Assembly: GCA_030704615.1 (NCBI GenBank)
Contig: CM060731.1
Location: 46,686,001-46,750,000 of the forward strand
Direction: 5' to 3'
DNA from: Takakia lepidozioides
Taxonomy: Eukaryota; Plantae; Bryophyta
DNA: 64,000 bases
In this document: positions 1,351 through 30,340 of the stretch, piece by piece
How the letters are laid out: every line of letters begins with the position of its first letter
Position numbering within the stretch: the first letter of the stretch is position 1
Made by a program: the position numbers and the translations under genes
Notes under the pieces: generated by a model
Databases searched by the model: none
The model's input: only the letters and a program-made list of their open reading frames with translations
What the model was told of the DNA's origin: nothing

Positions 1351-2329
1351 AATTCTTTGTCATCGACACTTTTTCTTGTTCTAAATCCTATACCTGCTTG
1401 CTAAGTGTCTGATTCAATAAAATTTCAATTTAATGATCAAACTTGTTAATATTGACGCTTTGACTCAAACTATAACATCAACCATGTTACAAATATAATG
1501 ATATCTCAATTGTATCAGGCTAGACCCCCTTGACAATTAAATTGACTATAACTAATATGTCATCCAATTTGTATAATGATAACTTCTTAAAAGTCTCCGC
1601 TACAATTTAAATCTCAATAATCAACAGTTTTTCAAGCCCTTTGATTTTGACATTTCTAAGTTAAATGATTGAATATGATTAGATATATTTGTTTTTAAAT
1701 ATTATTTATTGATTAATTCAATTTAATTCAATTTTGTCGTATATCAAGTTTGGTCCGGATTTAAGCGAAAAGTCCGGATTTAATTAAAATGGTGTTTTAA
1801 ATTGTCATCTCGATTTTGAGAAGTAGTTTAATAACACCATAATTGGTGTGGTTGGTCGATTTAGGAGATCAAGAGGCTGTCGCAATATCCCCCATCTGCT
1901 CCAGGGGCCTTCCTTCTCAGTTTTTGAATCCTGCATATCCACCATTTTTCCTCATCTACACCAGCAGCTATGGATGTTGGCACCCCTTGGCCTCCTCGTG
2001 TTCTGTCTACCACTGTTGTTTCTCATGCTTCTAGTCGACCATCCACGAGCCATCCACCCTGCAAGCAGGTTTTTCATTGCTATCAATCCACAGGGATTTG
2101 AAGGTAATCTTGTGCTTAAAATCCGGCCTTCACGGATGACAATCGATAGGAAACTCCCTCCCTTGGGCCTTACCATTAGTAAAGGGGAAATTCCCTCATT
2201 TACCATTAGACCCTTAACTCTAAATGTACGACACGTGTCCAAAATATAGCATGTACTCTTAATTATTTTAAAAGTTTTCTAATGCAAAAAACCACCACAT
2301 TGCATGTCTGTTTTTAATGCCAAGCAGTT

Positions 2330-2414
2330 TGTCGTGCGCATACATATCGCTACACAACTACATCGCTGTCCAAACCACACCACACATATATGCACAATAA
2401 AGTAGTCTGCCACA
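2330..2414 (-). repeat. Terminal repeat A, outer copy (85 bp, TG...CA)
   Basis: Near-identical (1 mismatch seen) to 2764-2848. Confidence 0.95.
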
Positions 2415-2415
2415 A

Positions 2416-2761
2416 TGATAAGAGCTTGAAGGACACACACTCCAACACAAGAAATATGAAATCCATCGCTATCACTCTTGAAATGAAGTCGAGCCAGGGG
2501 CACCCCAAGCTATGGGGACTCCACCCCACAACAACCTACATCTACATAAGCACACACTCAATCCTAAACCATGCAGGAGCTCGGTCGCGCAGGCTCAACT
2601 CGAGAGAGATGAGCCGCGACTGCCGCTCTCGTGAAGATAAGACGGACCAGGTGTCAAACTAAACTTGACACCTGATTTAACACTTGACCTAAATCCAAGT
2701 GTTAAATACAAATAACTAGTTTATTCTAGCTGTTTTCACACTGTGCTTATTTAACTTGACA
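2416..2761 (-). repeat. Terminal repeat B, 3' copy (~346 bp, TG...CA)
   Basis: Direct repeat of 13939-14294. Differences are mostly 1-nt indels. Confidence 0.95.
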
Positions 2762-2763
2762 GC

Positions 2764-2848
2764 TGTCGTGCGCATACATATCGCTACACAACTACATCGC
2801 TGTCCAAACCACACCACACATATATGCACAATAAAGTAGTCTACCACA
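2764..2848 (-). repeat. Terminal repeat A, inner copy adjacent to the PPT
   Basis: Direct repeat of 2330-2414, separated from repeat B by the dinucleotide GC. Confidence 0.95.
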
Positions 2849-2850
2849 AT

Positions 2851-2860
2851 CGCCCCCCTA
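2851..2860 (-). other. Polypurine tract (PPT)
   Basis: Minus strand reads TAGGGGGGCG-AT-TGTGG, a G-run 2 nt before the TG of repeat A. Confidence 0.8.
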
Positions 2861-3109
2861 GCTGGTGGATAGGTTCACCTTACCTTCCAGATGACTACAA
2901 GACTGTACATTGCCATAGCCGTACTACGTCCTCATCATTGTCCCGCTCGTACAAACTATATAGACCAAGAGGGCGGGTACAAGGACGTAGCCACACGTTA
3001 GTCGCCGTCTTGCAATCTGTGAACTTTGAAGCCAGCCTTCGGTATTCAAGGTATCCTGTAGCTGGGCCTTGCGTTGCTTGTTAGCCTTCCATGGTTGTAT
3101 CCACTCCCA

Positions 3110-3265
3110 CTATCCAATGCATTGTGGACATAACCATCCATCCGGAACCATCTCAAGAGGTGGAGTCAAGCATCCCATATGCCAACCTCTAGAGCACCGA
3201 TCACACACCAGCATGGTGGCTGCCCCTTTAGCAGACCACACAAACAGCACCTCCAAACCTGCAGA
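3110..3265 (-). CDS. PHD finger at the integrase C-terminus (frameshifted)
   Basis: MLVCDRCSRGWHMGCLTPPLEMVPDGWLCPQC matches the PHD consensus CD.C...(F/W)H..CL.PPL..VP.G.W.CP.C. Confidence 0.9.
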   Translation of the reverse strand, partial: SAGLEVLFVWSAKGAATMLVCDRCSRGWHMGCLTPPLEMVPDGWLCPQCIG

Positions 3266-4450
3266 TACCACTGCCAGGTTTGGGTCAATCCTGCCATCGA
3301 CATTCGGAAGGTGAAATGGCGCACAATTACGCACATGGTCCTTCCAAGTTATGCCATCCCGACCCTCCAAGACCAAGACGCTGAGGGCAAGACCTCTCGA
3401 ACCCTCAAAATAACACGTCCTGCAGTCACATCCAGGGTCGTAGGAGCAGTCTGCTGCAGATAGACATAGTCACCAGGGTTGAATCTCCGACCCCAGGACG
3501 ATAGCCCCACCACGTATGGTAGCATACCTCAACGTATCACGGTGTTGTGCAATGGCAAGGTTCTCGAAAGCCATGGGCATGACTCTTTGAACAACTCTGC
3601 ACGCTGCTCACATGCACGTGCCCACACGTCTGGATCGTCAAGGTTAAGAACTGTAGCAGCTTCTCTGCGAATGGATGTAGGCAAATCCGGCTCTCGGCCA
3701 AAGAGAAGAAAGTATGGTGAGAAGGAGGCAAGTGATGCTTGCTTGCTGAACCTGTAGCCCATGACTACCAGGGTAACTGAAGGTCCCAATCTCCTAGGTG
3801 TCCCTTCTGCAAGCCATACTTGCGCAAACCCCTTTTACTGTCTGAACAACTCTCTCTGCCAAGCCATCGGCCTCAGGATGATCCCGAGAAGTGGTGCGGT
3901 GGTCTATCAAGGCCTTGTCACACAAAGCCTGAAACTCCCCCAAGAACTCTCTCCCTTGGTCCGTGAGTACCTCAGCTGGAGAACCGAATCGCTAAGCACA
4001 CAATCCAAGAATGCATACGCAGCTCCCTCACTAGCCTTATCAGGCAATGGAACCAATTCAATCCACTTGGAGAAGTGCTCCACCATCACCAACACGTACT
4101 TGTTGTGGCGCATGGTCAGTGGCAACGGCCCTGCGAAGTCAAGACTCCACCTGTAGCCCAATCCCATGATCGGAAGAGGGTGCAATGGTGGAGTAGGGGC
4201 GTTGAATGAAGCACGCACCCTGTCACACACCATGCACAGCCACAAATTGTTGCACCTCTTGCACGACCACTTGCTGACTTGCCACCACGCCCTGCCACTA
4301 ACAATGCCCTTGCAGTAGAATAAGGAGCGTCGCACCACACAAATGCCCACCCAACTCCTCGTGGGCATGCCGCACTAACCGTGCCCGCTGTGTTGGGTGA
4401 GGCACAATCCTCACTCGACCATCCTCCCACACTCGGAGCAGGTGTGTCCC
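3266..4450 (-). pseudogene. pol: Gypsy DDE integrase (frameshifted)
   Basis: CMVC zinc pair, PLHPLPI, WSLDFAGPLP...KYVLVMVEHFSKWIELVPL, and GYRFSKQASLASFSPYFLLFGREP. Confidence 0.92.
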
Positions 4451-4799
4451 CTCCCACCTGAACCTCTTGGCTCGTTGTAGGATCCGATCCCTCTCCTGGA
4501 AGTCATAGTGGCTGCCGTGTCTCCACTGCGGAGGTAGTCCAACACAACTGAATCCTCATGTATATCTTTGGCGCCACCTGCTCATTGCTGGCCTCAGGGT
4601 CCTCAGACACTTGATCTACAGTCATCCCTGTTGTAGGTCCAACCTGGCCTTCCGCTGCCAAGATACACAGAAATGCAGATGCATGCCACGGGCACCATCT
4701 CCTCGTCCGTCTCACCATGCCCCGAGCTCCAGTGTCATCTGCTGGCTCGTGCATGGATTGCGACTCAACCCATCTGCATTTCGATTGACCAAACCCGGT

Positions 4800-6000
4800 C
4801 GATGCACCACCTGAAAGTCATACTCTTGAAGGATGAGCGCCCACCGTGCAAGCTTCCCCGTAAGCTTGTCTGACCATCAACCACTTGAGTGGTTGGTGAT
4901 CCGTGACAAGGGTGAAGAGATTGCCGTATAGATAGCACCTGAAGTGTGCCACGGCCCACACTGCAGCTAAGCATTCTCCCTCATATGAGCTATACTTAGA
5001 CTCTGCAGCATTGTTGAGCGGCTAGCATAAGCCACTACGAACTCTCTTCCTAATCATCCCACCTGTGTGAGCACCGCTCCAAGCCCCAGCATGCTCCAAT
5101 CTGTATGCAGCTGAAAAGGACGCCCCCTGATAGGTCGTCTCAAGATGGGCGCCGAGGTCACCTCGCCTTGAGCTCTTGAAAAGCTTGTTCTTGCTCATCT
5201 TCCCACTGCCACTCCTGGTCCACCTTGGTCAGCTTGGTTAGAGCCTTTGCAATGGCACTAAATCCCTTAACAAACCGTCTGTAATAGTTTGCTAACCCCA
5301 TGAAAGCTCGAACTCGGCTCACATCCGTGGGGCGTGGAACCTGTGCAATGGACTCTTACCTTAGTCTGCTGTACCCAATCCTCCAGGATATATCATGTGA
5401 CCCAGATACTCAATCTGGTTGTGGAAAAACTTGCACTTGCCGGATGTAACTTCAATCCGTGCGTCCTCAAGCGCTCAAATACCCCCTGAAGGTGTCTCTC
5501 ATGCTCCTCCACCGTAGCACTAAAGATGATGATGTCATCTATGTAGCACCGAGCAAAACTCCACCCCTGCTAGAATCCTGTCCATGACTCTTTGAACTCA
5601 GCGGGAGCATTTTAAGCCCAAATGGTAAGAACCGCCACTGGTATAGGCAATCCTTCCCGTGCTCATTGATCCCCCAGAATGCCGTCTTCTGCTTATCCGC
5701 CTCTTGATCGGCAACTGGTGATATCCGGATCGTAAATCCAACGTGCTAAAGACCTTGGAATGCCCAATGGCATCAAAGATCTCCTCTGGTGTTGGCATGG
5801 CATACCTATCGGACTTGGTCTGACGATTTACAGGCCGGTAATCACCGCACATACGTCTCTCCGTCCATTGCCATAGACATCCTTCTTAGCTGGCATCACT
5901 GGTGGCTGAAGCATACTCTCCACCAGAGAGCTCCACCAAACCTGCCTCCCAGAGATCTTGAGTCCTCATCTGAATCAAAGACCTCTCCATGTCACTGTAT
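4800..6000 (-). pseudogene. pol: Gypsy reverse transcriptase and RNase H (frameshifted)
   Basis: CGDYRPVNRQTKSDRYAMPTPEEIFD...FSTLDLRSGYHQ (5598-5852), CYIDDIII near 5525-5550, VRAFMGLANYYRRFV, and RNase H start PFQLHTDWS near 5100-5120. Confidence 0.93.
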
Positions 6001-6519
6001 CTATAGGGTTCCGAAAGATTGGCGTGTCAGTGGCCAACTCAATACGGATCTCTTGACCCTTCAGTGCTCACAAGTCCTTCAAACTGAAGGCAAAGCAATT
6101 CCTGTAAGCCCTCAGGAACCGCCGTATACGTCGTCTCTCTCCTCCGGTGACAATGGGTCCAATATCAGGCTCCCAATTGTCCTCCGTAACTGCAACCTTA
6201 AGTCCAGTGGGCTTAGAGGTAGAGGACGCGTCCCGTGGTTGCTATGCTGCAACCTCTTGAGCAGTACCCCCTTCCTGCTCAGTCAATGACAAGGCCTCAT
6301 CCTGCCCCATCATCTATCATTGAGAAACCTCCTCATCCATCACAGCTGCCTTCGCTGCCAACTCCCTCTGAACCTCGAGCACCTCCCACATGTGCCATGG
6401 ATGTCTACACCTCGTGGTCCTCACCGGCTCGCCCCCACTCGCTGCCTGTACCGTCTCGGTAGGCAGAGAGACCGTCAAGGGAAGTGCACTCCGCACTCTA
6501 CGTTGCTCAGCCATAGCCA

Positions 6520-7475
6520 AGCTGACAATCCAGGTCAAGCAATTGAGATCCATTGCTTGCCCCAACACCTGACGACGTGATGCCTCAGAAAGAGAAGGCA
6601 CCGCCGTGGTCCCAGTGGAAAACCCCATAGCCCGCTCTCGCTCGTCGGCCATTAGGCTCCACTAACTGCTGCAACTGAGCATCCCACAGGAGGCCAGGTC
6701 CACCATCCCGAAAAGCATGGGATCCTGGGAAGCTGAGCAGTGTGGTAATGCTGCTCGTGGTTGACCCACTCTGTTGACCACTGCCAAAGGCGAACGGTCA
6801 TCGTGTCTCACACGTTGAGACTGCCTTCCCGTGTCCAAAATGCCATCCACGGTGAGGTGTGCTGGCCGCTGCACCCCATCAAATGCACGCTTGAGCAGTG
6901 CAGGTGGCATCAAGTTAGTCCACCATAGTCGTGGACGATGAGCCCGTGACCCCACTGCAGCTGCATCCAGCAATACTGCTGACCCAAGCCACGACCGGAC
7001 TTGATGCACACTGGCCATCACCCTGGCCCCGAGAATCACCCATCAGTGGCACATTCTCAAAGATGTATGCCGGAGATACAGCCTGATGAAGCTGCAAGTG
7101 GCGTAAAATCCGCACCATCTCCCAAAACAGACCCGTCCTCGAGTCTCGCAATCCATTGCCATGCCCGGCTGATGAATGCCCTTGGCAGGGCCAACCTGCC
7201 ACTACCAGATCAATGGAGCCAACCCGCTCCAAATCCTGCGCCCCCAGCAACGCAATGTCTGCTGCAAGGCCTGCTGATATCCACGAATGCAGACACCGGC
7301 AACAACTCAGGGTGCTGCTGCACCATCTGAGCAACATGGCGCAGTGAGACGCGTCGTGCAGTCTCATCCCTCTCCACATACATGTAACGTCAAACTCGTA
7401 CACCTGCCTGCAGCACTGCAGCCAATCCAGTGCTGATCCCGCCAAATAAGTCCAGAAGGCATATGCCTTCATCCG
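6520..7475 (-). pseudogene. DNMT3-type C5 cytosine methyltransferase domain embedded in pol (one stop, several frameshifts)
   Basis: Motif I ICLLDLFGGISTGLAAVLQAG (~7405-7465), IV IDLVVAGWPCQGHS, VI YIFENV, VIII AHRPRLWWTNL, IX-X ERERAMGFSTGTT...SRRQVLGQAMDL. The motifs are in unpermuted I-X order. Confidence 0.92.
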
Positions 7476-7849
7476 GGTGCCACACAAGAGGTGTGGTGTC
7501 AATGGCGACAACTGAGGTGGCCCTGGTACAATCACCGCATCTCCTCCTCTCCTGACGGTACAAAAGCTTCTACCCAAGCTTGTTGCACCCGTCCATCAGC
7601 AGCGTACTGCAATCCTTGCTCGTACCCCACAACGGAGTGTGAGCAACCATGGCGGGCAACTCCGCCGTACCATGCATGTCAACCTGCTCTGCTGGAGGTG
7701 GCACATCCTCTGCATGGGCATTGCCTTCTAGCAACTCTCCAGGCCAGCTGACTGCAGCTGTGAAGGCGGCTAGTGTTGGCATCTTGCCCCGCTGAGCAGC
7801 TGCAATACCCCCAATGAATGTCACAGGGAGCTGTGCACGGCGACCATCC

Positions 7850-8200
7850 CCTGACTGCCATCCAGGCCTGTAGGATGCTGACTCCTCCCAGAAATCCAGG
7901 GTGAAGCCCATGGGGTATAACACTGCCCCACCAACGAGGACATCGTAGGAGACCGCGTCTGTCACAATGGCCTTGGCTCGCATCACTGAGCCATCTACAG
8001 GATGATCCGGCTGCAGTCTAATAGCCAACTGATGCCGTGTCATGCCCGAGCCTGCTCTGATCCTCCCAGAGATGTCTGTATCTGGAAAGGACAAGGCTCC
8101 ATATCCGCCTCCATGAGGCCCAAACCTGCAATAGCAGCTCTGCCCAACATCAGTGGCTGAGCTCCTGAGTCCAACAAGACCCGCAGTGGCCCGGTACTTC
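7850..8200 (-). pseudogene. pol: Retroelement aspartic protease (frameshifted)
   Basis: Catalytic RVLLDSGAQPL (~8150-8185, alternative frame) and C-terminal SYDVLVGGAVLYPMGFTLDF. Confidence 0.85.
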
Positions 8201-8554
8201 TTGCCTGCCGGTCCACTCAAAGTGAAAATGCCTCCCTGGTTGTCTAACAAGACAACTCCAGGTGTCACCATGGCGCGCTCAAAGGCTGGCCTAGCTGGCA
8301 GCTCCGTCAACCTGGCAGCTGCAGCTTGCCAGGGCGCAGCCGTGGCAGTCTTGACCCTCAAATCCGAGGATCCCTCTGCCACTACACCTTCCACTAACTC
8401 CGCAGAAGATGAAGTGACCTCCCCACTCTCACAGAGTGTTGCTGCTAGTCTGAACACTGCAGCTGGCCTCACCCCCGGCGTCGCAATCATGGTTGCCGAG
8501 AACAATGGGGGCTTGACACACAGAGGTGGCTGCCCCAAAAACACACCGGCTGCA

Positions 8555-10416
8555 CTAGCCTTGGTAGCAGGTGTCAGTGTTGCACGTGTAGCTCTCCCAA
8601 TGGCATAGTAACCCCGCCTCGGTAACAGTCGGGCGAGAACTAGGTGCCATGGATGGCGTTGACACTGTCTCCGCCAAGGTGAATGACTGAGGCAGCCTTG
8701 CCTGACGGCTTGCCTCCCCACGTTGTGGATCCAACTCCACCTCTGCACCTCGTGGCTCAGAAACTCGTGTTGCTCCTCGAGTCACGGCTGCAGCAGACTC
8801 CACCTGCTCTAATGGTAGTGCTGCTCCGCACATAAATCCCATTCCGCCCATATCTCCTCCCTCAGGAGCAGGAGGTGGGCCATCCCGCCTGGGAGCCGGT
8901 ACCGCCTGAGCTATAGCCATGGCAGCGAGCCTCTGCTCTAGCTGCTGAAGCCGATTGGCCATGCCTTGGTCAACACCCTGACCTCCGCGTCCTTGGCCAT
9001 GTGGAGGTTGCCCTTGGCCTGCACCTCGTGCCCGACCACCTCGTCCTCTTTGGGCTGGTCCACCTCGCCCCCGGCCACCATTGATCCCTTGGAACTGGCC
9101 TGGGCGCAACTCAGGATGCAAGTCATAACACTGGGCATCTCCATGCCCATACTTGCCACAATGCCCACACTGCAACTGTGCAGGTTGTGCTTGTGCCGGC
9201 CTTCTGCCACTCTCTGGGCAATCTCTCTTGACATGGGGTCCTCCACATGTCCAACATATCACCCCTGGTTGCTGTTGGCCTGCAAAAGATGCCACGGGCC
9301 TCTGCACCTGAGGTCCCCTGTAGGCTCCATGGAACTTGGGCTGGGCAACCTTGCCCCCCTGACCACGCTGCTGGGCAGTCCCTTGTGCTTGTGGGCTGAC
9401 AGCTGTGCCCCGTACAGGCATGTCCTTGCCAAATCCAATTGTAACAACTCGTTCCTCCACCATGTTGAGCTCAATCCGCTCAGCCAGCAGAAACACATCT
9501 GCTAATGTGGGTTGGGCTGCTTGTAACAGGGTTGCATCTCGCACCCTTCTCTTGAGCTCCTTGTCCAGAATTCCATACCAAAACTGGATTGCCTGAGCTT
9601 CAGTAACCCCTTGGGTCACACTTATCAAGCGCCTCATACGAGTGTACGCCTCTCGCAGGCTCTCACTGGGTTTGCGCTGGAAGTCTTGCAAACTTCGCAG
9701 CTTCTCTGTCCGTACACCTTGGTAGTTCCTCCGCAACTCCTGGAAGAACTCCACCACCGGGTTGAATCTAGGCACATGTGTTGTAGCTGTGGCAGGAGGA
9801 GTAGTAGCACCTTCTGAACTGGTACCACCGGCAGAAGTACCAGCACTACCTGCTCCACTACTAGTGCTGGCAGTGGGAGCTATTGGTACTGATGCAGCTA
9901 CTGGTCGCGTCATGCCTCGAGTAATGGAGATGTAGTCAGGTGACCAATACATCCTCCACTCCTCAATCTCTGCTTCATGTCCTCGCCTGAACTCGTGGTA
10001 ATCGTCCATAGGCGGGCCTTCCAAATGCTGGAACAGTCCCTTCCATGCCATGAATGGGGTGAATAGATGTGGATTGCGCATCTGCTGCAAATCACACCAG
10101 CTGTCGAACTCCTGGATAAAGTCATCCAACTCGATTGTGCCCACAGCTCCAGAGTACCTACGAGGCCCTTGGTAGCTCCATACATCTCCTCCATGTCGTC
10201 CCACAACAATGGCGAATGAAAGTGCACACCTGTTGATGAAGCCTCCGAGCCTGTGTCTGACTCTACAGTAATTGAGGGTGGCGGTGAAGGTGGTCTGAAC
10301 CGAATACCTCGTCTTGTGAACCCACTCTCACTGTTACTGCCTGTAGCCGTACTCCCCTCAAAACCCTTGGGTAACTCCGTAATGACACTCACAATGTGCA
10401 CCTCCTCCAGTGACAC
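8555..10416 (-). CDS. gag: Gag with two zinc knuckles (N-terminus in a shifted frame, 9910-10416)
   Basis: Retrotransposon gag motif LQDFQRKPSESLREAYTRMRRL and knuckles CWTCGGPHVKRDC and CGHCGKYGHGDAQC. Confidence 0.9.
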
Positions 10417-10929
10417 TATAAGGCTCTAGTACTAATCTAATAGTGACACGGGTGGGCACCTGTTGCAGTCTAAGGGTCATATCCCAGTGGCTCAGGGCAC
10501 CTGCACCTGCATCCACCGCAAGAACTCCTATGGTTGGCTGGTCATCAACCCAGCCTCACCATAGAAGAAACACTGGTGGTCTTGCTGGTCATCACTCCAG
10601 CCTCACCACCGACAGCATACTCTAGGATTGACCGGTGATCAAATCCGGCCTAATCCCTATGAAAGCAAGCGCCCACACAAAACCAACATGGCGCACAGTC
10701 AAGCATGCAGGTGTTGGGGGGGGATCCAAACACACGAAATCAAAACATCAACACCCCCACACCAAAATCCAGCAGCAACGCTGATCCTGCAGAATATCCC
10801 AGCCCAAGACCCCGGACTGACTGGCCTCCACCAAGAGAGGCTTTGGCAACTACAAGTACAAGGTAATGAAAATAGTACAGAGATGGAGGGGAAGAATAGA
10901 AGCCCGCCCAAGCAAGATCTAATCCTGAT

Positions 10930-11679
10930 CTATGCTATCAACTTCCAGACTTCTCTCAAAGTGCCTCGCTCTGCTTGATGGTAAGGTGTAGGAGGTATAT
11001 CTATGTCCAGAAACCTGCCACTAACCTTGTCCCAAGCTACAGTAGCTCGCTCTAACCAACCCTCCTCCTCTTTCTGCCAGGTAGAGACAAAGCAACACTC
11101 TGCTATCTCCCGCTCACTGAACACTAAAGAAAACAAAGGTAGGGTCTGATAGTCTCTCAACTCGAAAGCTTTGAGACGGTTGCGGGTGTCTTCATTGCGA
11201 ATGACTGGATCGCCTTCAAACAGAACAAACTTGTCCTCGCTAATGAACCCCCGCTCGTGGTTGCCTTGTGCAGAGCGTGTCCGACTGCAACACTGTCTAA
11301 TTGCACAAACTTGTGCAGCTCCTGCTCCTCTGCTCCAGTACACCACGGCCTTGTGGCTGAACACCTTGGTCCCCGGGGCTGTCTTTGGCTGTGTTCCAAG
11401 CCTAGCTTTCACCCACTTTGGTATTTCACTTACAGCTGCAGAACTGCTGGCTCCAACAGAGTTCTGACTGTCCAAGGCGATATTGAGGCCCTCAATGCCA
11501 ACTACAGCAGTCTGTTGTCTACTGCTAATGCCTGACTCCCAGTATGCAATCAACTCGTCCAACTGTTCTCCACTCAAATCAGTCTGAGTTCCTTGGGAAA
11601 CATAGATCCTGTCCCCTTGTGTGCACAGGCTAAGAGAAGAGACCTGCCCTTCAATTACGTCCTCATTTCCCCCAGCCAT
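10930..11679 (-). CDS. Extra 249-aa ORF of unknown function upstream of gag inside the retrotransposon
   Basis: Uninterrupted ATG-initiated ORF on the element's sense strand with globular-looking composition. No family recognised. Confidence 0.55.
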   Translation of the reverse strand: MAGGNEDVIEGQVSSLSLCTQGDRIYVSQGTQTDLSGEQLDELIAYWESGISSRQQTAVVGIEGLNIALDSQNSVGASSSAAVSEIPKWVKARLGTQPKTAPGTKVFSHKAVVYWSRGAGAAQVCAIRQCCSRTRSAQGNHERGFISEDKFVLFEGDPVIRNEDTRNRLKAFELRDYQTLPLFSLVFSEREIAECCFVSTWQKEEEGWLERATVAWDKVSGRFLDIDIPPTPYHQAERGTLREVWKLIA

Positions 11680-12402
11680 GCAGGGAGTACATCCACCAAT
11701 TTGTCTCTCATATAGACCAGCACAGGTTCTAGAGACAGGATTGTGGATCTTTCATGGCACTCTCACACTCTAAAAATTCCATAGATTTTTAGCAGAGTCC
11801 CCAAAGCAGAAACCAGGTTTAGATAGGTAGATTTCCCCTTTCTGCAGCTATCCACCCAAAAACTGAGTCAAACGGAGTCCATTTGACAAAGTTATGACCA
11901 ACCAGGCTCTAAATCATTTAAATTATATCAAAGTTTTTTTTTTTTTTTTTAACACCAAAACGTTCCCGCCATTAGAACCGTTCCCGGGTTTCATTTGTGG
12001 TTACAGATGCACCACAGACTTGCTCGCTTAGTGAGCTGCTTTGCTCCAGCGACGACTCTCGAGCTCGGGTGGATGGCTATGGCGATGGTGGTGGCCTGTG
12101 CAGCGTCAGGCATCTATTTCCCGTGATGCAAGCACTCGAGCCATCCCTAATGCAGGGACAAGCCCTGATGATACTCTGTCAGAACCTGGTGGGCAGCTGC
12201 CATCTGCACTTGCTCCCTCTTCAGACAATCTTCGGACCTAGTGTCAAATGTGGAAGTGGTGAAGGAGCTTATTGACAAAGGCAACTGTGTTGGACTATCC
12301 ACAAAGTGGAGAGTAACCAGATCAGCTTCGTCATTTAGTTGAAGCTTGGAGCATAGGTCTGCATACTCCGATAGGGCAAGGCACTATCTCAATTCAGGTA
12401 GC

Positions 12403-12619
12403 GATCATGTTTGCTTTGACCTCCATCAAGGGAGTGGAGCGCCGTTTCGCTAACCTGGTCTGCAAGAAGGCGGACGTCGACACCAGCAAGAGAGCTGGTG
12501 AGCTGTCGGGTGCGGAGCTGGAGAACTTGATGGTGATTGTCGCGAATCCCCGGCAGTTCAAGATACCTGACTGGTTCTTGAACAGGAAGAAGGATCACAA
12601 GGACGGACGTTATTCGCAG
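12403..12619 (+). pseudogene. RPS18: Captured fragment of 40S ribosomal protein S18 (uS13), antisense to the element
   Basis: [72 protein letters not shown] is unmistakable plant RPS18. Both termini are missing. Confidence 0.93.
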
Positions 12620-13189
12620 GTCAAACTTTCTTCCAGACTGATCCAGGTCCTGTCAGTCCAAGTAAGTAACCTCTCCTAGAGGAGAACTAAAAGAGATTAC
12701 GGGGAGGTAGGTTACATATGCACACAACTGGAGCTGGAACACCTGCCCCCCTGATCCACCCCCACCATAACCTTGATAGGCAGAAGTAGCAGGGTACGGG
12801 TTTCCAATTAAGCCGTAATTCAGCTTCGAAGATGTTCAACTAGTGAAACACACAGCAGCTGAGAAAGATGCAACTGATGAAAGCCCTGCCACTCCTCACA
12901 CCTCCACGCTCCCGGCATGCTCACCAAATGAAAGAAAACCAGAAGAAAACTCCCCTTCACCTGCAGAGTCCAGCTTTTGACTTTGTCTCGAGCCTGTTAC
13001 ATTCTCAGAGATTTTACTATTCCACTCAACCATTTCACATCAAGCACACAGGACAGCCTGAAACCTAAACTTCCCACGTTATTATGCAAGTTTGACGGGC
13101 GGGATGTACAATCGGAATGGACTATCCAATCTGCAGACCAAAATCCTTTTCTTCCCAGCAGAATCGAGTCCTTGAGTCCGAGTCCCCCT

Positions 13190-13461
13190 TGCGATCTTCA
13201 AGTCCATTATACTCGTCATTCGAGGTTGATACAACGAATACACAACCGATTGCCGCCTGGTCAATTCCAGCTGCTGCTTCCCCTGATTGAAAGCAGAGAC
13301 AACGCTGGAAAGATCGACAGCTCGGAATTGTCCTTAAACGCTTCCCGACTTCGCCGTTTCACGTACTCCCGCACATTATAGTGCGTAAATCTTCACGCTT
13401 CTCTGAGAAAGCCTCTCAACAGCGCCCGCACCTCCGCTGCAGATGGCGCTACTGCGGCCAT
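13190..13461 (-). pseudogene. ISD11: Captured, near-complete LYR-motif protein ISD11/LYRM4 coding sequence
   Basis: MAAVAPSAAEVRALLRGFLREA*RFTHYNVREYVKRRSREAFKDN / (frameshift) SAFNQGKQQLELTRRQSVVYSLYQPRMTSIMDLK follows the ISD11 pattern (LYR...F..YN.REY..RR...F). Confidence 0.82.
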
Positions 13462-13472
13462 CGCAATTCTCC

Positions 13473-13562
13473 CTCCACTTCAGGATTGTTGATCAAATGC
13501 AGCACCTTGGTTGTTGACCGGTCATATTCCCTGTGTCCTAGCTTGGACTCCAAGACTGCAAG
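13473..13562 (-). pseudogene. MAD1: Captured fragment of spindle checkpoint protein MAD1
   Basis: LAVLESKLGHREYDRSTTKVLHLINNPEVE resembles the MAD1 LESKLG.GDY....T(K/R)VLH segment (MAD2-binding region). Confidence 0.72.
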
Positions 13563-13720
13563 AGTGCAGGTATCAGCGTTCACCGCTTGCCAGCGCTGCT
13601 CCATGCTGCACGGTAGAGCTTCTCTCTAAGCTTACTGGGGAAACAATCATCCAGCTTCAAGGATCACGCATAGGTGCCAACTAGCATTTGCTGCTGCATT
13701 TTTAAGTCTCTCCTCGTGTA

Positions 13721-13849
13721 CTCCAAAGCCTCTGGTGACTTGGTAGCTTTAGCGACTGCAATAACAGTGGCGGCTCCGGCATCGTCATCCTCCAGGCGTT
13801 TCAGGGCACGCTGAATCTTGTGATCACATTCAATGATATGCTTCTCAAA
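13721..13849 (-). pseudogene. LUC7: Captured fragment of U1 snRNP factor LUC7-like
   Basis: FEKHIIECDHKIQRALKRLEDDDAGAATVIAVAKATKSPEALE resembles plant LUC7-family LIVECDRKI.RALKRL.EEDAKAAIAISVSEVTQSPEILE. Confidence 0.75.
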
Positions 13850-13921
13850 CTAAGCACTACTTACACATAGGTAATCTTGCAAGTGCTAACCCACAACTCC
13901 TACCTTGCACTCACAGGTAAG

Positions 13922-13938
13922 AGCTGATCTCTCTCGAG
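13922..13938 (-). other. Self-complementary primer-binding site (Tf1-like)
   Basis: Minus strand CTCGAGAGAGATCAGCT directly abuts repeat B and is complementary (16/17) to 14129-14145 inside the same repeat. It does not start with the TGG of a tRNA PBS. Confidence 0.8.
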
Positions 13939-14294
13939 TGATAAAGAAGCTTGAAAGGACATACACTCCCAACACAAGAAATATAAAATCCATCGCTATC
14001 ACTCATTGAAACTGAAGTCGAGCCAGGGGCACCCCAAGCTATGGGGACTCCACCCCACAACAACCTGTATCCCTACATAAGCACACTAAAACCTAAACAC
14101 ATGCAGGAGCTCGGTCGCGCAGGCTCAACTCGAGAGAGATGAGCTGCGCGACTGCCGCTCTCGTGAAGATAAGACAGACCAGGTGTCAAACTAAACTTGA
14201 CACCTGATTTAACACTTGACCTAACTCCAAGTGTTAAATACAAATAACTAGTTTTATTCTAGCTGTTTTCACACTGTGCTTATTTAACTTGACA
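13939..14294 (-). repeat. Terminal repeat B, 5' copy (356 bp)
   Basis: Direct repeat of 2416-2761, TG...CA. Confidence 0.95.
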
Positions 14295-17094
14295 AGTTCT
14301 ATGTGTTGCACCGTTTCCCTGACCTCACACGAGCTTGCATACACGTTGATGTGCATTGTCACAAATTGGCGAGGGGGAACTCGCGGGAGGCTGCCCACGA
14401 GGCAGAGCAGCTTAAGTTGAGACCTGGTGCCAAACCCAAACAGATACAACTGCAGGCCGCCAAAATTATGTCGAAAGATGGCTCTGACAGAGTTCCTCTC
14501 GACGAGAAGAAAATGGAGGCATTGCTGGAGTCAGTGTCCCACGTCTGTTCACCGAATGTCCGAAACCACATTGTCTCCTGCAAACAAAGAATTGGGCGAG
14601 GCTCGGATATGCACTCCATTCTAGAGGTGAAGCGACGATGTGCATATGACTACATTCATGGAAGTAGGTTTCCAGGACAAGGGGCTGAGGCAGATCGTTG
14701 TTTCATATTCAAAATGTCCACGTGAGGGCCTGGTAGCGGCGTGGAACTGGTCCACCGGATGACGAGTGGGGACTTGTCAAACAGTTGGGTCATGTTCGAC
14801 CATATCAAGCGAATTACAAATCACCAGTAGGTGACAATGGGTGCACATGTCTACGACACCCACTGTAGGATGCTAATGACAATTGCTATTTGTGAGATGA
14901 AAGGGGGGGACACACAATCGGAGATGCTTCTTTGGCAGGGAATAAACGAACAGATGGCCAGGGCGGGATTGCCCCCGCCCAATTTCCGTGGTTTCATGGC
15001 GGACAACGCACAAGCAAATTGGGCTGCCATCCGAAGGGTGTACGGTGAATACCCCAATGTTCTGATGGAAGGCAATGAAAGATCTTGTGGGTTCCATTTT
15101 CTGCAGAGCTTGTCATAGTACACAACCAGGCTCGTGGCGCTAGATTTCAGAGAGGAGCACCGTTCCATGTGTCTTGCGTGGAAGCGTGCTCCTACCTTGG
15201 ATGATGCAGAGACACAGTTTGCATGTATACGGGCTTGGTGGACAACGTCAGGTGCTGTAAAGAAATCAGACGAGGGAACAATGGTCAGTTGGCTAGCATG
15301 GTGGCATTATTGTTTCCTCCAGTTTGACGACTATATGCGGGAGGTGAGTTGGACGAATTTGCGTCCCGTTGAATATTATGCTAGTCATTATTTGTAACTT
15401 GCTTATAACCTCAGTATGTGCATGTGGAGGAAATGTGTCTAGACTCCGACACCGATATGCCGACAACAAACATGGCCGAATCAGTACATTCTTCCTGACG
15501 TGCCTCCTCTGTGGCGCATCTGGGGGACATCCTCATTGCCACAACGGAGGACATTGTGAGGTCAATTATGCAACAATGCAGGTACAACGAGTTCTTGAAA
15601 GGGAAACAGTGGGGCTTAGGGCCGGACAGGCATGAAATGCTGATGTGACTGCCTCCAGATTGAAGAATCCTCGGAAGTGGGCGGCAGCCTTGCGAGAGGG
15701 CCTTCGAGACACGCCATTGCTTCGAAGAGGCCAACACTTGGAATGAGATGTTCACACCTGTCCAATGAGACGAAGACTTGACGAGGCACCTGGCGGAGAA
15801 GAGGATTCATGGGGAGCTGACAAGAATATTCGCACGCTCCCTCGTGGTCCCGTGATGTTGCCCAAGGAGGTCTCGTCGAGCACCACAAGTCCTGCACATT
15901 CAAGATCGACATCTCCTTTGAGCACAGGGTACGTGCCCGAGGAACATAACGAGCCATATGTAGTAATGCAGTACAACATACCCATTGTGGAGCCAAGAGT
16001 GTCGGAGTCACAGTGGAGAATTGCAAGGACATTGTCGGCATTTCGAGGGAAGTGCTGCGCTATCCGAGTGGATACGAGAGCACGCTGTTGTGAGACGATT
16101 CGGAGGAACCCACACGGTGCTGTATCTGCACCTTGTTTCAGCGGCATATTTTTGACTCCCAGATTTTCTCACGCCACAACATAAACGTTTTGGTTCTATA
16201 GGCACGAATAATGACTTGTGTATTTGGCAAGCCCAAGTACGAGATTCAGGGAATGCCGGAGCCTCCGGGCGTCTGGCCTGTTGCACCGGGTTGCAACCTC
16301 TCTTAGAATGAGGTGGATGCTCTTTCTGCAGCAGGATTTCGAATGGTGCAACACACAGACGTCCCTGCCCACCCATTTCCAGTTCCTCAGACCAGCCATT
16401 GCAGACTGCGAGGTCCAGTAGAGACGGATTGGACAATTCTGCACATCCCACAATGCGATTCAGAAGAGTGAAGAGACGACACCCTCCCAACAAGTTGAAT
16501 GAGACTGCCAATGCTCTTGGGATGGCTTGCACTATTCAGAGCTCCGTGGATGTACCCGCACCCGGCCTTGGGCGTGTTTATCGGATGGCAACGGCCGGCT
16601 CAGCTGTACGCGACGACGTATACACAATTATAATCGGAGTGGAGCCGACCTGCAATTGTACGGACTTCTCGTTGATGGAAGCAAAGAAGGTGACAAAATA
16701 TTATCCGTGCAAACATTTGTATTACATTTACCTGAAGAGGTTGAGGATGAACTTGACTATTTATGACTTTGTTCATGCACCAGCGTTGAGCGTGAACGAG
16801 CTGCACAAACTCCTCCGCCGGGATTCCAGAAATCATTGATGGGGCAAAGGGAATCCACCATATGGATATTTGCAATTGCATTTTTATGCATTAGACTTTG
16901 TTTTGCAGTGTATAATTTAAAATGCACCCCAAAACTCCAGGAATGAGACAGGCAATATTAAAGTAATCTATTTTAAACACTATGGACTTCTGGATATCCG
17001 TTGACGTCCAGTGGCAATTCAATGTCGAAACAGAATCCATAATAAGATGGCGGCAGGAAAAATAAACTGTCTAAGTCCCAACATATACGGGAAC

Positions 17095-18107: not shown

Positions 18108-18484
18108 TCATAAAGGTGTCCATCACTAACCATTTTTTAGTTATACAGTGTGATGCATCAGCTAGTTCTTCCCCAAAATATTAACTACAAGCTTGCAGTT
18201 GCTCGACCATTGGTGTAGGGCTGGAATTGCATTCACCGAGTCCAAGCTCCTTCAACATCGCTCGGATATATCCCCGCCGAGTCATGAAAATACCCTGTTT
18301 GAAGTAGAGAAACTCGATTCCCAGATACAATTCAGGAGCTCCAAGCTGAGACATTCAAAATTTATTCACAAGCTGCTATGTCAACTGTAAAGTAAAAAAT
18401 GGGGGCCTTGTTTCACCACCCGGGGTAAATCTATGTGTTCCCTCTTGATTAGACAACCAGTTTCAATGCTACATGAGCCGCAGT

Positions 18485-20040
18485 GGAAGGGCGCTCGGAT
18501 GAAATCGTCTCGGGGGGAGAGGCTGACACGTGGCTGCCAGAGATCATCCCCAAGATGGAAAAACGGCGCCGAATTTCCATCCAAGGGCACTCGAATGAAG
18601 TCGTCTCGGGGGGAGAGGCCGACACGTGGTTGCCAGAGATCATCCCCCGGATGGAAAAACGGCGTCGAATTTCCATCCAAGGGCGCTTGGATGAAGTCGT
18701 CTCGGGGGGAGAGGCCGACATGTGCCTGCCAGAGATCATCCCCCGGATGGAAAACGGCGCCGAATTTCCATCCGAGGGCGCTCCGTTGAAGTCGTCTCGG
18801 GGGGAGAGGCCGACACATGCCTGCCAGAGAACATCCCCCGGATGGAAAAACGGCACCGAATTTCCATCCTACAGGTAAGTTGGAGCTCGGACGGATGGAA
18901 AATCGGCGCCGAATTTCCATCCGAGGGTGCTTGGATGAAGTTGTCTCGGGGGGAGAGGCCAACACGTGCCTACCAGAGAACATCCCCCAGATGGAAAAAC
19001 GGCGCCGAATTTCCATCCTGTAGGTAAGTCGGAGCTCGGTCGGATGGAAAACTGGCGCCGAATTTCCATCCGAGGGCGCTCGGATGAAGTCGTCTGGGGG
19101 GGAGAGGCCGACACGTGCCTGCCAGAAAACATCCCTCGGATGGAAAAACGACGCCGAATTTCATCTTGCAGGTAAGTCGGAGCTCGGACGGATGGAAATC
19201 CGGCGCCGAATTTCCATCCTGCAGTTAAGTCAGAGCTCGGACGGATGGAAAACCGGCGCCGAATTTCCATCCGAGGGTGCTCGGGTAAAGTCGTCTCGGG
19301 GGGAAAGGCCGACACGTGCCTGCCAGAGATCATCCCTCGGATGAAAAAATAGCACCAAATTTCCATCTTTGGACGCCCGTATGGAGCCGTCATCAACCAT
19401 TTCAGTCGTTATATGACATTTTTCGAGTTTTTTTTGTATAATCTGACCCTCAATTTAGAGTTTTCACCCTGTGGGCCACTTTTTTTGTACGTTATCCCTA
19501 CAAATGTCGGAAATTCGGCGCTGGTTTTCCATCCGAGGGAGCTCCAAGTTCTATTGCGGATGGAAATTTGGCGCCGGTTTTCCATCCAAACGAGCTCCGA
19601 CGTACCTGCAGGATGGAAATTCGGCGCCGGTTTTCCATCCGACCAAGCTCTGACTTAATTGCAGGATGGAAATTCGGCACCGGTTTTCCATCCGTCCGAG
19701 CTCCGACCATGGAAATTTGGCGCCGGTTTTCCATCCGACCGAGCTCCGACTTACTTGCAGGATGGAAATTTGGCACCGGTTTTCCAGCCGGGGGAGCTCC
19801 GACTTACCTGTAGGATGGAATTCGGCGCCGGTTTTCCATCCAGCGGCTTGTGGATGATGCCATCTCGGGCGGAGCGAGGGCTAGGTGGCGCTCCTACTTC
19901 ATCCGCTGGATGGAAATTTGGCGCCGTTTTTTCCATTGAGGGGCTTGTGGATGATGCCGTCTCGGGCGGAGCGAGGGCCAGGTGGCGTTCATACTTTGGC
20001 GCCGTTTTTCAATCCAGCGGGCTGTCGATGAAGTCTCGGG
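18485..20040. repeat. Compound tandem array of ~30-bp palindromes forming a large imperfect inverted repeat
   Basis: Units of roughly 97 bp and 53 bp, each containing GGATGGAAA(AAC/TTC)GGCGCCGAATTTCCATCC. Arms 18485-19370 and 19505-20040 are in opposite orientation. Confidence 0.9.
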
Positions 20041-23839: not shown

Positions 23840-24745
23840 TGGTTGTGAAGAAATGGCGAAGTCCTTGGGGTGACTGCCCCCGAGACAGGGAAAATGACGC
23901 CGAATTTCCAGTCTCGGTGGAGAAATGGCGTCGAATTTCTAGTATGGGTGGCAGCCACCCCTGGGACTTAGCCATTTTCGGGGAACGGAACTGGAAATTC
24001 ACCGCCATTTTTCCTAGCTGGGTCGAAAAGTGGCTAAGTCCCAGAAAGGACTAGGCCCCAACCTGGAAAAATGGCGCCAAATTTCCAGTATCGGTGCCAG
24101 CCACCCCCCGGACTTAGCCATTTTCGGGGCCAGGAACTGGAAATTCGGCACCATTTTTCTAGGCTGGGTCCGAAAGTGGCTAAGTCCCAGAAAAGGCTGG
24201 GCCCCAACCTGGGAAAATGGCGCCGAATTTCTAGTATCGATGCCAGCGCTGTCCGAGACTTAGCCATTTTCTGGGCCCGAAACTGGAAATTTGGCGTCAC
24301 TTTTCCAGGCTGGGTCCGAAAGTGGCGAAGTCCCAGAAAGGGTTGGGCCCCAACTTGGAAAAATGGCGCCGAATTTCCAGTATCGGTGCCAGCCACCCCC
24401 GGGACTTAGCCATTTTCGGGGCCCAGAACTGGAAATTCGGCGCCATTTTTCCAAGCTGGGTCCAAAAGTGGCTAAGTCCCAGAAAGGGCTGGGCCCCAAC
24501 CTGGGAAAATGGCGCCGAATTTCCAGTTTCGGTGCCAGCCACCCTAGGGACTTAGCCATTTCTGGAGCCCGAAAGTGGTCATTCGGCGCCATTTTTCTAG
24601 GTTGGGCCCCAAAACAGCTAAGTCCTAGCATGGGCTCCCTCGCCCTCGGAAAAAATGGCGCCGAATTACCACTTTCACTGCACGGCACCCCAGGGAACCG
24701 GGACCATCGAGCCCAACCCGCATAGAATTTCGGCGCCAATTTTGC
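23840..24745. repeat. Intronic tandem array (~148-bp unit) with two oppositely oriented GGCGCC-centred palindromes per unit
   Basis: Alternating CTGGAAATTCGGCGCCATTTTTCC and GGAAAAATGGCGCCGAATTTCCAG, about 5-6 units. Confidence 0.9.
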
Positions 24746-27629: not shown

Positions 27630-30340
27630 CTACTTGTTCACGTCATGCATAACAGTCAGAAGCCTCGCGATGTCATTCCCAGGATCCAGAACCATTGCCT
27701 CCACAGCACAATGCTTGTCCTTGTCTTTTGAATGGTGTTTTGCAATGTACCCCATCCAAGCAAGAAGGCGGTGGTTCCCGTCCCAAACATAGAACATGTG
27801 GTTGCAGAACTGCTGAGTGTTATGTCCAAGGAGCAGGGAGTCCTCGAACTTGTCATTCACATCCTTCCAGCAATCATCCCAGTTGTCCGTTATCTCTGGG
27901 CTCACTTTTGTGCTGTTACCATTTATATCCTTCAGTGAGACGTAGAATACTTGTGCACCCATTCTGTACCCGTGCACGAAATCTGTTTCCAACTTGGTAA
28001 TGTCATGCGATAGTGGAGGACGAACAACAGACATGGAGATCATGCGGCATAGAGGGATTTCAAGGCGTCCTCCAGATATGATCATGTCCCTAATAACCTC
28101 CTAGGAATTTACCTTTTGATATGACATAAGCTCTTTCACCTTGTCAAGGTAGTGCAATTCAGGATCGTCTGTGTCTTCGCTGTTCTCAGAATTCTTCGTG
28201 GAGTCGTCCCTTTCTCCAGAGCCCTTCTCTTCTGTTTCTCCCTGCTTAGATTTTGCATTTTTCTGCATACACAAAACCCAAAATAACAACATTCAACTGG
28301 TATTCTGGAAACAGACATTTTGAAACAATGATGATCGGTACCGACCATCACTTTTTCTTCTAACAAATGAATGGATAGTTTACTGTGTCTCCCAATGCAC
28401 TTTCACTTAGTTCTCACCAGTATGCGATGATCGGTGGCGGCCATCACAATCCACATTTTGCACACAAGAAGTTTTCCGAACTCATATTAAAAATGACAGT
28501 CAACGAATAGTGATGATCGGTACCGATCATCACTTTATGCATGTACGGAAGAAGACTTCAGACACCCTGTTGTCTTTCTTAAAATTCAACTGATAGTGAT
28601 GATCGGTGGCGATCATCAGTATCTGCCATCGAAAATGACACACCATAAACTATCAAACCACATTTGGAATGACAAGGATGATGCAAGCGATGTTATGTAC
28701 CGATCATCACAACAAGACAGACCTGCGATACACACATCCATGAGGTCTGAATGTGATGGTCGGCACCGATCATCACTTGAGAGACAACATGCCTGCCTTT
28801 CAGTGCATGAGACATTGACTTGGAAGCGATGATCGCCACCGATCATCACTTTCCTGTCACTACAATTCCACAAGAAAATAAGTGGGTTGGACCTTGTACA
28901 TCGTAAAGCAAAGTATTGCATCGGTACTCTCCATTTGGGGGTAATATCCAGTCACCACAGAAACTGATGATCGGTGCCGATCATCATAATAAGACTGCTG
29001 GGATACACAGCCCATGAGGTCTGAATGTGATGGTCGGCACCGACCATCACTTTTTTCCAGAATGCTTGCATTTCAGTGTATGAGACATTGAGCAAAGAAA
29101 TGGACTTGGAAGCGATGATCGCCACCGATCATCGCTATTCTGTCACTACAATTCCAGATGTGAATAAGTTGGATTGACCTTGTATATCGTAAAGCAAAGG
29201 ATTGCATCGCTACTCTCCATTTGGGGGTTATGTCTAGTCACCACAGAAACTGATGATGGGTGCCGATCATCACATTCAGATTGCCCTGGGATACACAACC
29301 CATGAGGACTGAATGTGATGGTCGGCACTGACCATCACTTTCCTGAATGACAATGCCATTCCCCCCTTCCTCTGAACAAGAAGGGAGTGGAGCTGAGAGC
29401 GAAGATCGCCACCGACTATTGCTGTTACATCATTGCAAGATGCTGCTTAAGTTCCCTAGCACTCTTTCATCACCATGAAATTGGCCTCATAGGCTTACAT
29501 AAAGCAATTGCGAAGGTGATGGTTTGCACCGATCCTTACATTCCTCGTGAAACGTATACTGGCCTGCCTGCCTGGCTTTTTGAATCTACTGCCTGTCTGC
29601 CTTCCAGCTACATTACTCTGTAAAGCGATGATCGCCACCGATCATCGCTTTTCTCACCTCTGGGTACCATCAGTAAAGAGGAGGAAGTGTTTGTGAGGCA
29701 ACTTATGGATCCCTTCGCCTTCTTTGCCTTCTTGGCTGCATCGCTCGGATCGCCCTCTTCTGCTTTCCTCTTCCCTTTTACATTGGACTGCACACAAGAT
29801 ACACCATGTTCTTGAATCCCAGATGGAAGGGAAAACATCCAGACTAATGAAAACAGAAGTATGTGGATATGTAGTGCTCACCATTTCTATTTGATGTAGG
29901 GTTCACAAACTTCCTCCCTATATGGCGTCCTCTTCTCCTCCCCCTGTTCTCTTCTCTTCGGGAATGAACTCAGCTGGCACTGTCTGGTTACCTACGCTCA
30001 TTGCTCCAGCCCTCGCAACGACTGCGGCGACCTCACTCTCACTTCCCACATGCTCTTGTGCTTCACCTGTCTCCAAGTTCACATGCTGCCTAAGCGCTAC
30101 ACCTTCTTGCATCCGACGCCTCGTCATTTTCTCTCTTGATCTCAGCCTCTCTCTAAGTGATGTGAAATATAATGACTTCCTTATCTTCCGAACCGGACAA
30201 GGAACCCTCTCCAGTTTGGTTGCCTCTCTTCCTGTAAGGGCAAATCAAGAAAGATGAACAGACTCGCTTTCTTGCGCGGTTCCGTCGTTTTGGGAGTGTC
30301 CCTGGAACCGTCAGATTCCCTCTTGCGTGTCCGATGCATG
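27630..30340 (-). pseudogene. ParB-like domain protein exons upstream of the methyltransferase domain
   Basis: LEIPLCRMISMSVVRPPLSHDITKLETDFVHGY...FYV...MFYVWDGNHRLLAW. Upstream exons are Lys/Glu-rich. Premature TAG at 28101-28103. Confidence 0.72.
28328..29650. repeat. Intronic array of ~15 24-bp palindromes (GTGATGATCGGTACCGATCATCAC consensus)
   Basis: Copies near 28328, 28426, 28510, 28596, 28688, 28753, 28827, 28964, 29027, 29113, 29250, 29315, 29399, 29515 and 29626. There is a higher-order ~287-bp duplication. Confidence 0.9.

Follow-up and report, generated by a model that had tools for sequence, protein, structure and literature searches.

A split-repeat Gypsy retrotransposon with a DNMT3-type methyltransferase domain ahead of a conserved, probably leaky stop codon

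Why a transposon should carry its own silencing enzyme has been a question since 2018, and one alga provides the sole Gypsy example in the literature found. For this element, KnitGypsy-Dnmt3 of Klebsormidium nitens, the accessible part of the report (PMC5890265) gives an unpermuted DNMT3-type domain in a Gypsy polyprotein and purifying selection, and the legend of Fig. 4c gives DIRS-like split repeats combined with Gypsy domains. The element described here shares these features. However, the authors place the DNMT domain in one ORF with the RT and RNase H (PMC5890265, same part), whereas a conserved stop codon separates them in the clade to which our element belongs; the single-ORF arrangement is absent from this clade and is found in relatives outside it. 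The hosts also differ, since KnitGypsy-Dnmt3 is from an alga, whereas the host here is a different plant, with relatives of the element in liverworts, peat mosses and algae. The KnitGypsy domain produced no methylation in yeast, a result called inconclusive by its authors in the text available (PMC5890265).

SymbioDIRS-Dnmt3 of Symbiodinium, as presented in the same excerpted text (PMC5890265), likewise has a DNMT3-like domain in a retroelement and A...B-A-B repeats, and de novo methylation of CG by it was demonstrated in yeast. It is a tyrosine-recombinase element, whereas the element in this study has a DDE integrase, TG...CA ends and a 4-bp target duplication. A DIRS/PAT tyrosine-recombinase identity is thus ruled out by the rve integrase and the target duplication.

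Two further systems should be noted. The host DNMT3 enzymes of non-flowering plants, PpDNMT3a/b, share the unpermuted DNMT3-type catalytic domain and carry a C-terminal DUF3444, according to the portion of PMC6453930 at hand. The Type I readthrough signal of tobamoviruses shares the six-nucleotide context after UAG and a polymerase downstream; as far as the available sections of PMC2754532 and PMC3159437 go, UAG-CAR-YYA gives about 6-10% readthrough in plants. Unlike the tobamovirus signal, the one described below lies in a retrotransposon, after Gag-PR-DNMT. No paper on the family in land plants or on its stop was found in a literature search in which most subscription papers and some supplements were outside reach. 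In their accessible parts, PMC12344493 speaks loosely of retrotransposon DNMT3s in 'streptophytes', and PMC10952607 and PMC9516144 deal with host DNMT3 only.

Layout and state of the element

The window is the whole stretch of DNA analysed, 64,000 nucleotides of the Takakia lepidozioides contig CM060731.1. The element occupies 2330-14294 on the minus strand (Table 1), starts with TGTCA, finishes with GACA and has AGTT on both flanks. Contigs of runs X1 and X3 connect 2325 with 14295, representing the empty site. The order of parts is A1, gag, protease, DNMT, RT, RNase H, integrase, PHD finger, polypurine tract, B1, A2 and B2.

Table 1. Positions of the element's parts in the window, from the 5' to the 3' end of the element
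Feature	Position	Strand	Remark
4-bp target-site duplication, element 5' end, AGTT on +	14295..14298	.	empty site in contigs
Split direct repeat A1, begins TGTCA	13940..14294	-	94% match to 2423-2761
Low-copy insert with plant RPS18 exon-intron piece (12389-12621, +)	11960..13940	.	depth drop, PF00416
gag (Retrotrans_gag, zinc-knuckle region)	8524..10171	-	PF03732 E 0.0017, under cut-off
Aspartic protease, LLDSGAQP 8177-8154	7900..8200	-	
DNMT3-type C5 cytosine methyltransferase domain, motifs I-X, catalytic PCQ and ENV present, copy broken	6500..7470	-	
Motif I, LDLFGGISTG	7455-7426	-	
Motif IV, GWPCQG	7196-7179	-	
Motif VI, ENV	7058-7050	-	
Motif VIII, AHRPRLWWTN	6943-6914	-	
ERERAMGF (motifs IX-X region)	6643-6620	-	
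RRQVLG (motifs IX-X region)	6577-6560	-	
In-frame stop TAG then CAA-CCA (CAR-YYA readthrough context), conserved	6236..6244	-	
RT and RNase H, beginning in frame after the stop	4750..6175	-	
RT motifs (YRPVN 5840, YIDDII 5545)	5840-5528	-	
Integrase (H2C2 zinc finger and DDE core)	3500..4520	-	PF00665 E 5e-05
C-terminal PHD finger	3121..3380	-	PF00628 E 4.2e-09
Polypurine tract ahead of B1	2851..2862	-	
Split direct repeat B1; B1/A2 junction GACA-GC-TGTCA	2764..2850	-	
Split direct repeat A2	2417..2761	-	
Split direct repeat B2, element end GACA	2330..2416	-	86/87 identical to B1
4-bp target-site duplication, element 3' end, AGTT on +	2326..2329	.	

The Ty3/Gypsy order PR-RT-RH-INT is present, and the best PDB match of the RT-RH-INT part of an intact relative, L022, is Ty3 (E 4e-86), in agreement with the preliminary description of the element as Gypsy-type. 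TG...CA ends, a polypurine tract and a short target duplication are also present. Two complete identical LTRs are absent, and split direct repeats are found instead. Besides the window, 6 of 25 long related loci have the full A...B-A-B layout and 4 more a partial one, and the target duplication of 4 bp occurs in three of the seven elements examined (window, L040 and L073). At the internal B1/A2 junction (window 2758-2767), the integrase ends stand head to head with a 2-bp spacer as GACA-NN-TGTCA, an arrangement also observed in four of six loci (L040, L063, L067 and L073); this junction probably templates the cDNA ends. No tRNA primer-binding site is evident by eye after A1, where the low-copy insert directly follows.

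The gag region is 51-53% identical to the N-terminal part of the Marchantia proteins P0189/P0190. The PHD finger of a relative matches the fingers of CHD4, PHF12, PHF21A and KDM5; we presume that the finger on the integrase steers insertion by reading the histone H3 tail. Upstream of gag, in the high-depth part, a 273-aa frame (10930-11751, minus strand) gave no Pfam hit, no homologue among the related loci and Atlas scores below 0.9 only.

The copy is damaged: its frame changes more than 20 times, yet the frames backed by homologues contain only about three stops (7392, 6070 and 5056). Repeats A1 and A2 (13940-14294 and 2417-2761) differ by 8 substitutions and 11 indel events, 8 of them single-base, whereas seven control A-repeat pairs from metagenome loci total 202 substitutions and 10 indel events. 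Because indels outweigh substitutions and the many frame changes are accompanied by few stops, many of the frameshifts may be assembly errors, and the copy need not be long dead. Contig depth, which is a hint and gives no copy number, is similar over DNMT, gag, RT and integrase and far higher than over 12241-13641. The insert at 11934-13940 contains a poly(T) run (11934-11951) and, on the opposite strand, an RPS18 exon with a piece of intron. Its RPS18 piece matches plant uS13 with 120-126 bits against 104 bits or less for all others, and the insert looks, from these sequence features, like captured host sequence. These matches point to a plant host, and the element's position in the DNMT and RT-RH trees makes a seed-free land plant probable.

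The element sits inside a repeat, other copies of which have the empty site, and its flanks gave no match among the related loci. Frames beside it (14295-16840) and elsewhere (31607-33818) are taken by us to encode a MULE/SWIM-like transposase. Nested copies with endonuclease and RT frames, presumably LINE-like, cluster at 46000-60400, where those at 53038 and 59724 differ by 1 change in 523. Tandemly repeated units of 50-150 bp, which have palindromic cores, form arrays at 18400-19900, 23850-24700 and 28300-29700.

The methyltransferase domain and its relatives

The C5-MTase motifs quoted in the preliminary description were all found in the order given there, on the minus strand between the protease and the RT (7455-6560). 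The PF00145 profile, proposed there as a check, matches 6915-7592 with 48.7 bits (E 9.5e-13; cut-off 22). Motifs I, IV (PC), VI (ENV), VIII, IX and X are present, and the C5-MTase fold is seen in the model of the closest relative, P0196. In the window the motifs are spread over three frames with one stop at about 7392. The frame changes within the domain lie near 7285, 7027, 6770 and 6649, and contigs of other copies show indels relative to the window at 7027 and 6649. When the breaks are read as X, alignment of the domain with the nine top-scoring relatives gives 60-67% identity across some 330 columns, a sequence likeness far beyond chance.

A profile built from 14 family sequences matches DNMT3A colinearly with 83 bits, against 54-40 bits for DRM-type enzymes, 38 for M.HhaI and 34 for DNMT2; with DRM2 (40 bits) the best stretch aligns profile positions 2-130 with the C-terminal part of DRM2. 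The Marchantia relative P0017 has 25 PDB hits, every one of them colinear and to DNMT3A, B or C. Although the mean pLDDT of the P0196 model is 66, its catalytic core is higher; among the Foldseek matches listed, all are DNMT3A/B/C (E about 1e-15 to 1e-13), with target TM of 0.72-0.79 for catalytic-domain chains. Judging from these comparisons, the window domain is of DNMT3-type with unpermuted motif order, not of DRM-type, as had been proposed. Of 31 full-length domains taken from the window's clade and from close unplaced relatives, 30-31 retain each of the six motifs, and the catalytic Cys and the motif VI Glu are each present in 150 of 150 aligned domains. DUF3444 was found on none of the 25 element proteins scanned, so that the family proteins are not host DNMT3 genes, and a stand-alone host plant DNMT3 gene was rejected as an identity.

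The elements had been called very rare, which does not hold, since 261 clusters (50% identity) match at E<=1e-30 in the full-library search, and 96 of the best 150 representatives have retroelement domains beside the DNMT. In these best 150, the arrangement is protease-DNMT-RT in 21, RNase H-DNMT-integrase in 75 and DNMT only in 52, with none in 2. A protein search (58 rows) includes 20 Marchantia polymorpha gene models, some of which may be the same locus annotated twice, 2 from Calypogeia fissa and 2 from Sphagnum; a Closterium protein was among the relatives in another search. Neither Klebsormidium proteins nor host DNMT3, DRM or DNMT1 sequences appeared among the rows of these searches. 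The suggested presence in land plants is therefore borne out by the Marchantia, Calypogeia and Sphagnum members. A family represented by L001, distinct from that of the window, is labelled Sphagnum-type because its pre-RT stretch equals the S. fallax model P0221 over 86 residues.

Codons were filtered for 30% local identity, a step that pushes the ratios down. On this basis, dN/dS of the DNMT domain is 0.10 (95% CI 0.04-0.18) for the unsaturated pair L022 and L026 (dS 0.28), 0.07 for the two intact elements L022 and L110, 0.10-0.16 when the window is compared with four Sphagnum-type copies at a dS near saturation, and 0.30-0.56 among decayed sister copies; in cross-family comparisons, dS is in many cases nearly saturated or undefined. 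The ratio across copies is thus about 0.1 rather than about 1, and on codon comparison the domain is under purifying selection.

These data bear on the explanation that a dead copy captured a piece of a host DNMT3 once, without function. The window copy is indeed broken and also holds the low-copy host RPS18 piece. Against a single capture, the same DNMT placement is found in the Marchantia, Calypogeia, Sphagnum and Closterium proteins, and a 2,754-nt contig from a second organism spans RNase H, RT and the whole DNMT; the low dN/dS and the missing DUF3444, the companion of host plant DNMT3, point the same way. The shared placement and the dN/dS of about 0.1 refute this explanation, to which we give hardly any weight, and the domain is a family trait.

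A second architecture, RT-RH-DNMT-(G-patch)-INT-PHD, accounts for the 75 representatives with DNMT before the integrase (for example P0048, P0051 and P0065-P0069). These elements form one side of both the RT-RH and the DNMT trees, their named members are the chlorophytes Haematococcus and Monoraphidium, and Glu replaces Pro before the catalytic Cys in 43 of 78. Intact elements or proteins were also found filed in cyanobacterial bins (L110, from CADCWO010000201.1, P0006 and P0295); these probably represent eukaryotic sequence that entered prokaryote assemblies. Viral contigs (30 loci) and four of five prokaryote-genome loci gave weak matches to ordinary methyltransferases only.

The stop codon between the DNMT and the RT

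In the window, TAG-CAA-CCA is located at 6244-6236, and in its clade the RT, RNase H, integrase and PHD finger continue in the frame of the stop. The domain had been placed inside pol, with a continuous PR-DNMT-RT frame suggested as a check. It does lie between protease and RT, and the frame is the same, but the conserved stop interrupts it in the window's clade; 'inside pol' is true only loosely because the in-frame TAG at 6244-6242 separates DNMT and RT.

In each of the intact elements L022 and L110, a single stop interrupts the stretch from Gag to the end of the PHD finger. The context is TAG-CAG-TTA in L022 and L026 and TAG-CAA-TCA in L110. Of nine loci of a third family, eight show TAR-CAA-TCA, and of 31 pattern matches in the Sphagnum-type family, which include many redundant copies, 30 read TAR-CAA-CC(C/A). 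The second codon after the stop varies (Pro, Leu or Ser), with YY constant, and the stop lies 17-24 codons upstream of one conserved pre-RT block. As controls, CARYYA follows none of 621 decay stops and makes up 0.31% of codon pairs. UAG-CAR-YYA with an open frame downstream is found in the window, L022, L026, L110 and the third family; the Sphagnum-type family has CAR-YYC, with CCC rather than YYA, and an ATG three codons after the stop.

Among the proteins of the window's clade, 27 of 29 end before the RT, the two exceptions being Marchantia models that skip the stretch; outside the clade 13 of 22 run into the RT, in a group partly selected for having RT. The stop-bearing elements form one clade in the DNMT tree (0.987) and in the RT-RH tree (SH-aLRT 99), the latter built with 20 of 40 type-B rows, two near-duplicate rows dropped and no outgroup. 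Some related elements (L059, L063 and L077) lack the stop, so dosage of the enzyme at Gag level is not needed by all elements. Because no variant of at least 8% was observed at 6235-6246 in four runs, including that of the second organism, the stop is not private to the window copy; with 13 of 221 positions variable, this absence is not significant alone and proves no selection. Another, double stop lies at 6314-6319, where two bridging contigs have 24 extra bases. RNA structure 3' of the stop is not conserved, as z is below -2 in only one of six sequences.

These observations make it probable, on sequence grounds, that the conserved stop is occasionally read through. Candidates for readthrough among rice Gypsy elements are mentioned in the available text of PMC2754532, so such a mechanism in plant Gypsy elements would not be new in itself. 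The stop could instead be genuine and bypassed by splicing, reinitiation or an internal promoter. The ATG past the stop in the Sphagnum-type family would also allow reinitiation, the two Marchantia gene models skip the stop stretch, and in Candida Tca2 flanking sequence is insufficient for readthrough, as stated in the accessible part of PMC2194720. However, the stretch from the stop to the first conserved pre-RT block contains no Met in the window, L022 and L110, the RT keeps the frame of the stop, and different lineages preserve the CAR-YY context; a bypass is accordingly considered unlikely, and readthrough is preferred.

Predicted action of the enzyme and its meaning

The placement of the stop suggests that the DNMT would be made at Gag level and the RT by occasional readthrough. 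Most translation would yield Gag-protease-DNMT, and a smaller share of the molecules would extend into RT-RNase H-integrase-PHD. Particles would then take up roughly as much methyltransferase as Gag, and the protease would free it. The domain is likely to be catalytically active on DNA, while the chance that cDNA is its substrate may be put as even. If cDNA is methylated, new copies would arrive pre-methylated, which could serve as a self-like mark or as immediate self-silencing.

Gag-like stoichiometry would also fit a structural part, and the Klebsormidium domain did not methylate DNA in yeast in the accessible account (PMC5890265). The domain might thus act on RNA (m5C on genomic RNA) or as a nucleic-acid-binding, nucleocapsid-like module, with DNA methylation incidental. 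The invariant catalytic Cys and motif VI Glu (150/150 each) and the preference of the profile for DNMT3 over DNMT2 (83 against 34 bits) argue against this role, which appears improbable.

An action mainly in trans, on host chromatin or older copies, would damp the spread of the element itself or of competitors instead of marking fresh cDNA. Synthesis at Gag level would yield a large enzyme pool, and a host-benefit model was raised by the 2018 authors (available part of PMC5890265). The CpG observed/expected ratio is 0.51 in the coding part of the element and 0.54 in the rest of the window; since the two are equal in effect, there is no footprint of self-methylation, and the missing extra CpG loss also suits action in trans. 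However, purifying selection on element lineages over saturated dS suits a benefit in cis better, and fusion to Gag-PR would put the enzyme in the particle. Trans action is therefore given a small, though not negligible, chance.

On balance, we lean slightly toward a damaged split-repeat Gypsy whose Gag-PR-DNMT frame ends in a leaky stop, which would place many DNMT copies in each particle and probably lead to methylation of the element's own new DNA. A wider reading, drawn from comparison of sequences and offered tentatively as somewhat doubtful, is that an old, widespread split-repeat Gypsy lineage of green plants and algae carries an active DNMT3, that the leaky amber codon of the land-plant clade loads particles with it at Gag stoichiometry, and that copies would be methylated before or at integration.

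The family extends the DNMT3-bearing Gypsy kind to liverworts including the model Marchantia, to peat mosses and to numerous other lineages, in which the domain takes one of two positions. The leaky stop predicts an enzyme level about ten-fold above that of the RT, which would alter the 2018 picture of one RT-linked, cis-acting enzyme. Caution is also needed with bryophyte annotations, in which some 'DNA methyltransferase' gene models are transposon frames. If the interpretation is true, the unrecognised Marchantia polymorpha gene models would allow the question of why retrotransposons carry methyltransferases to be tested in a genetic model organism.
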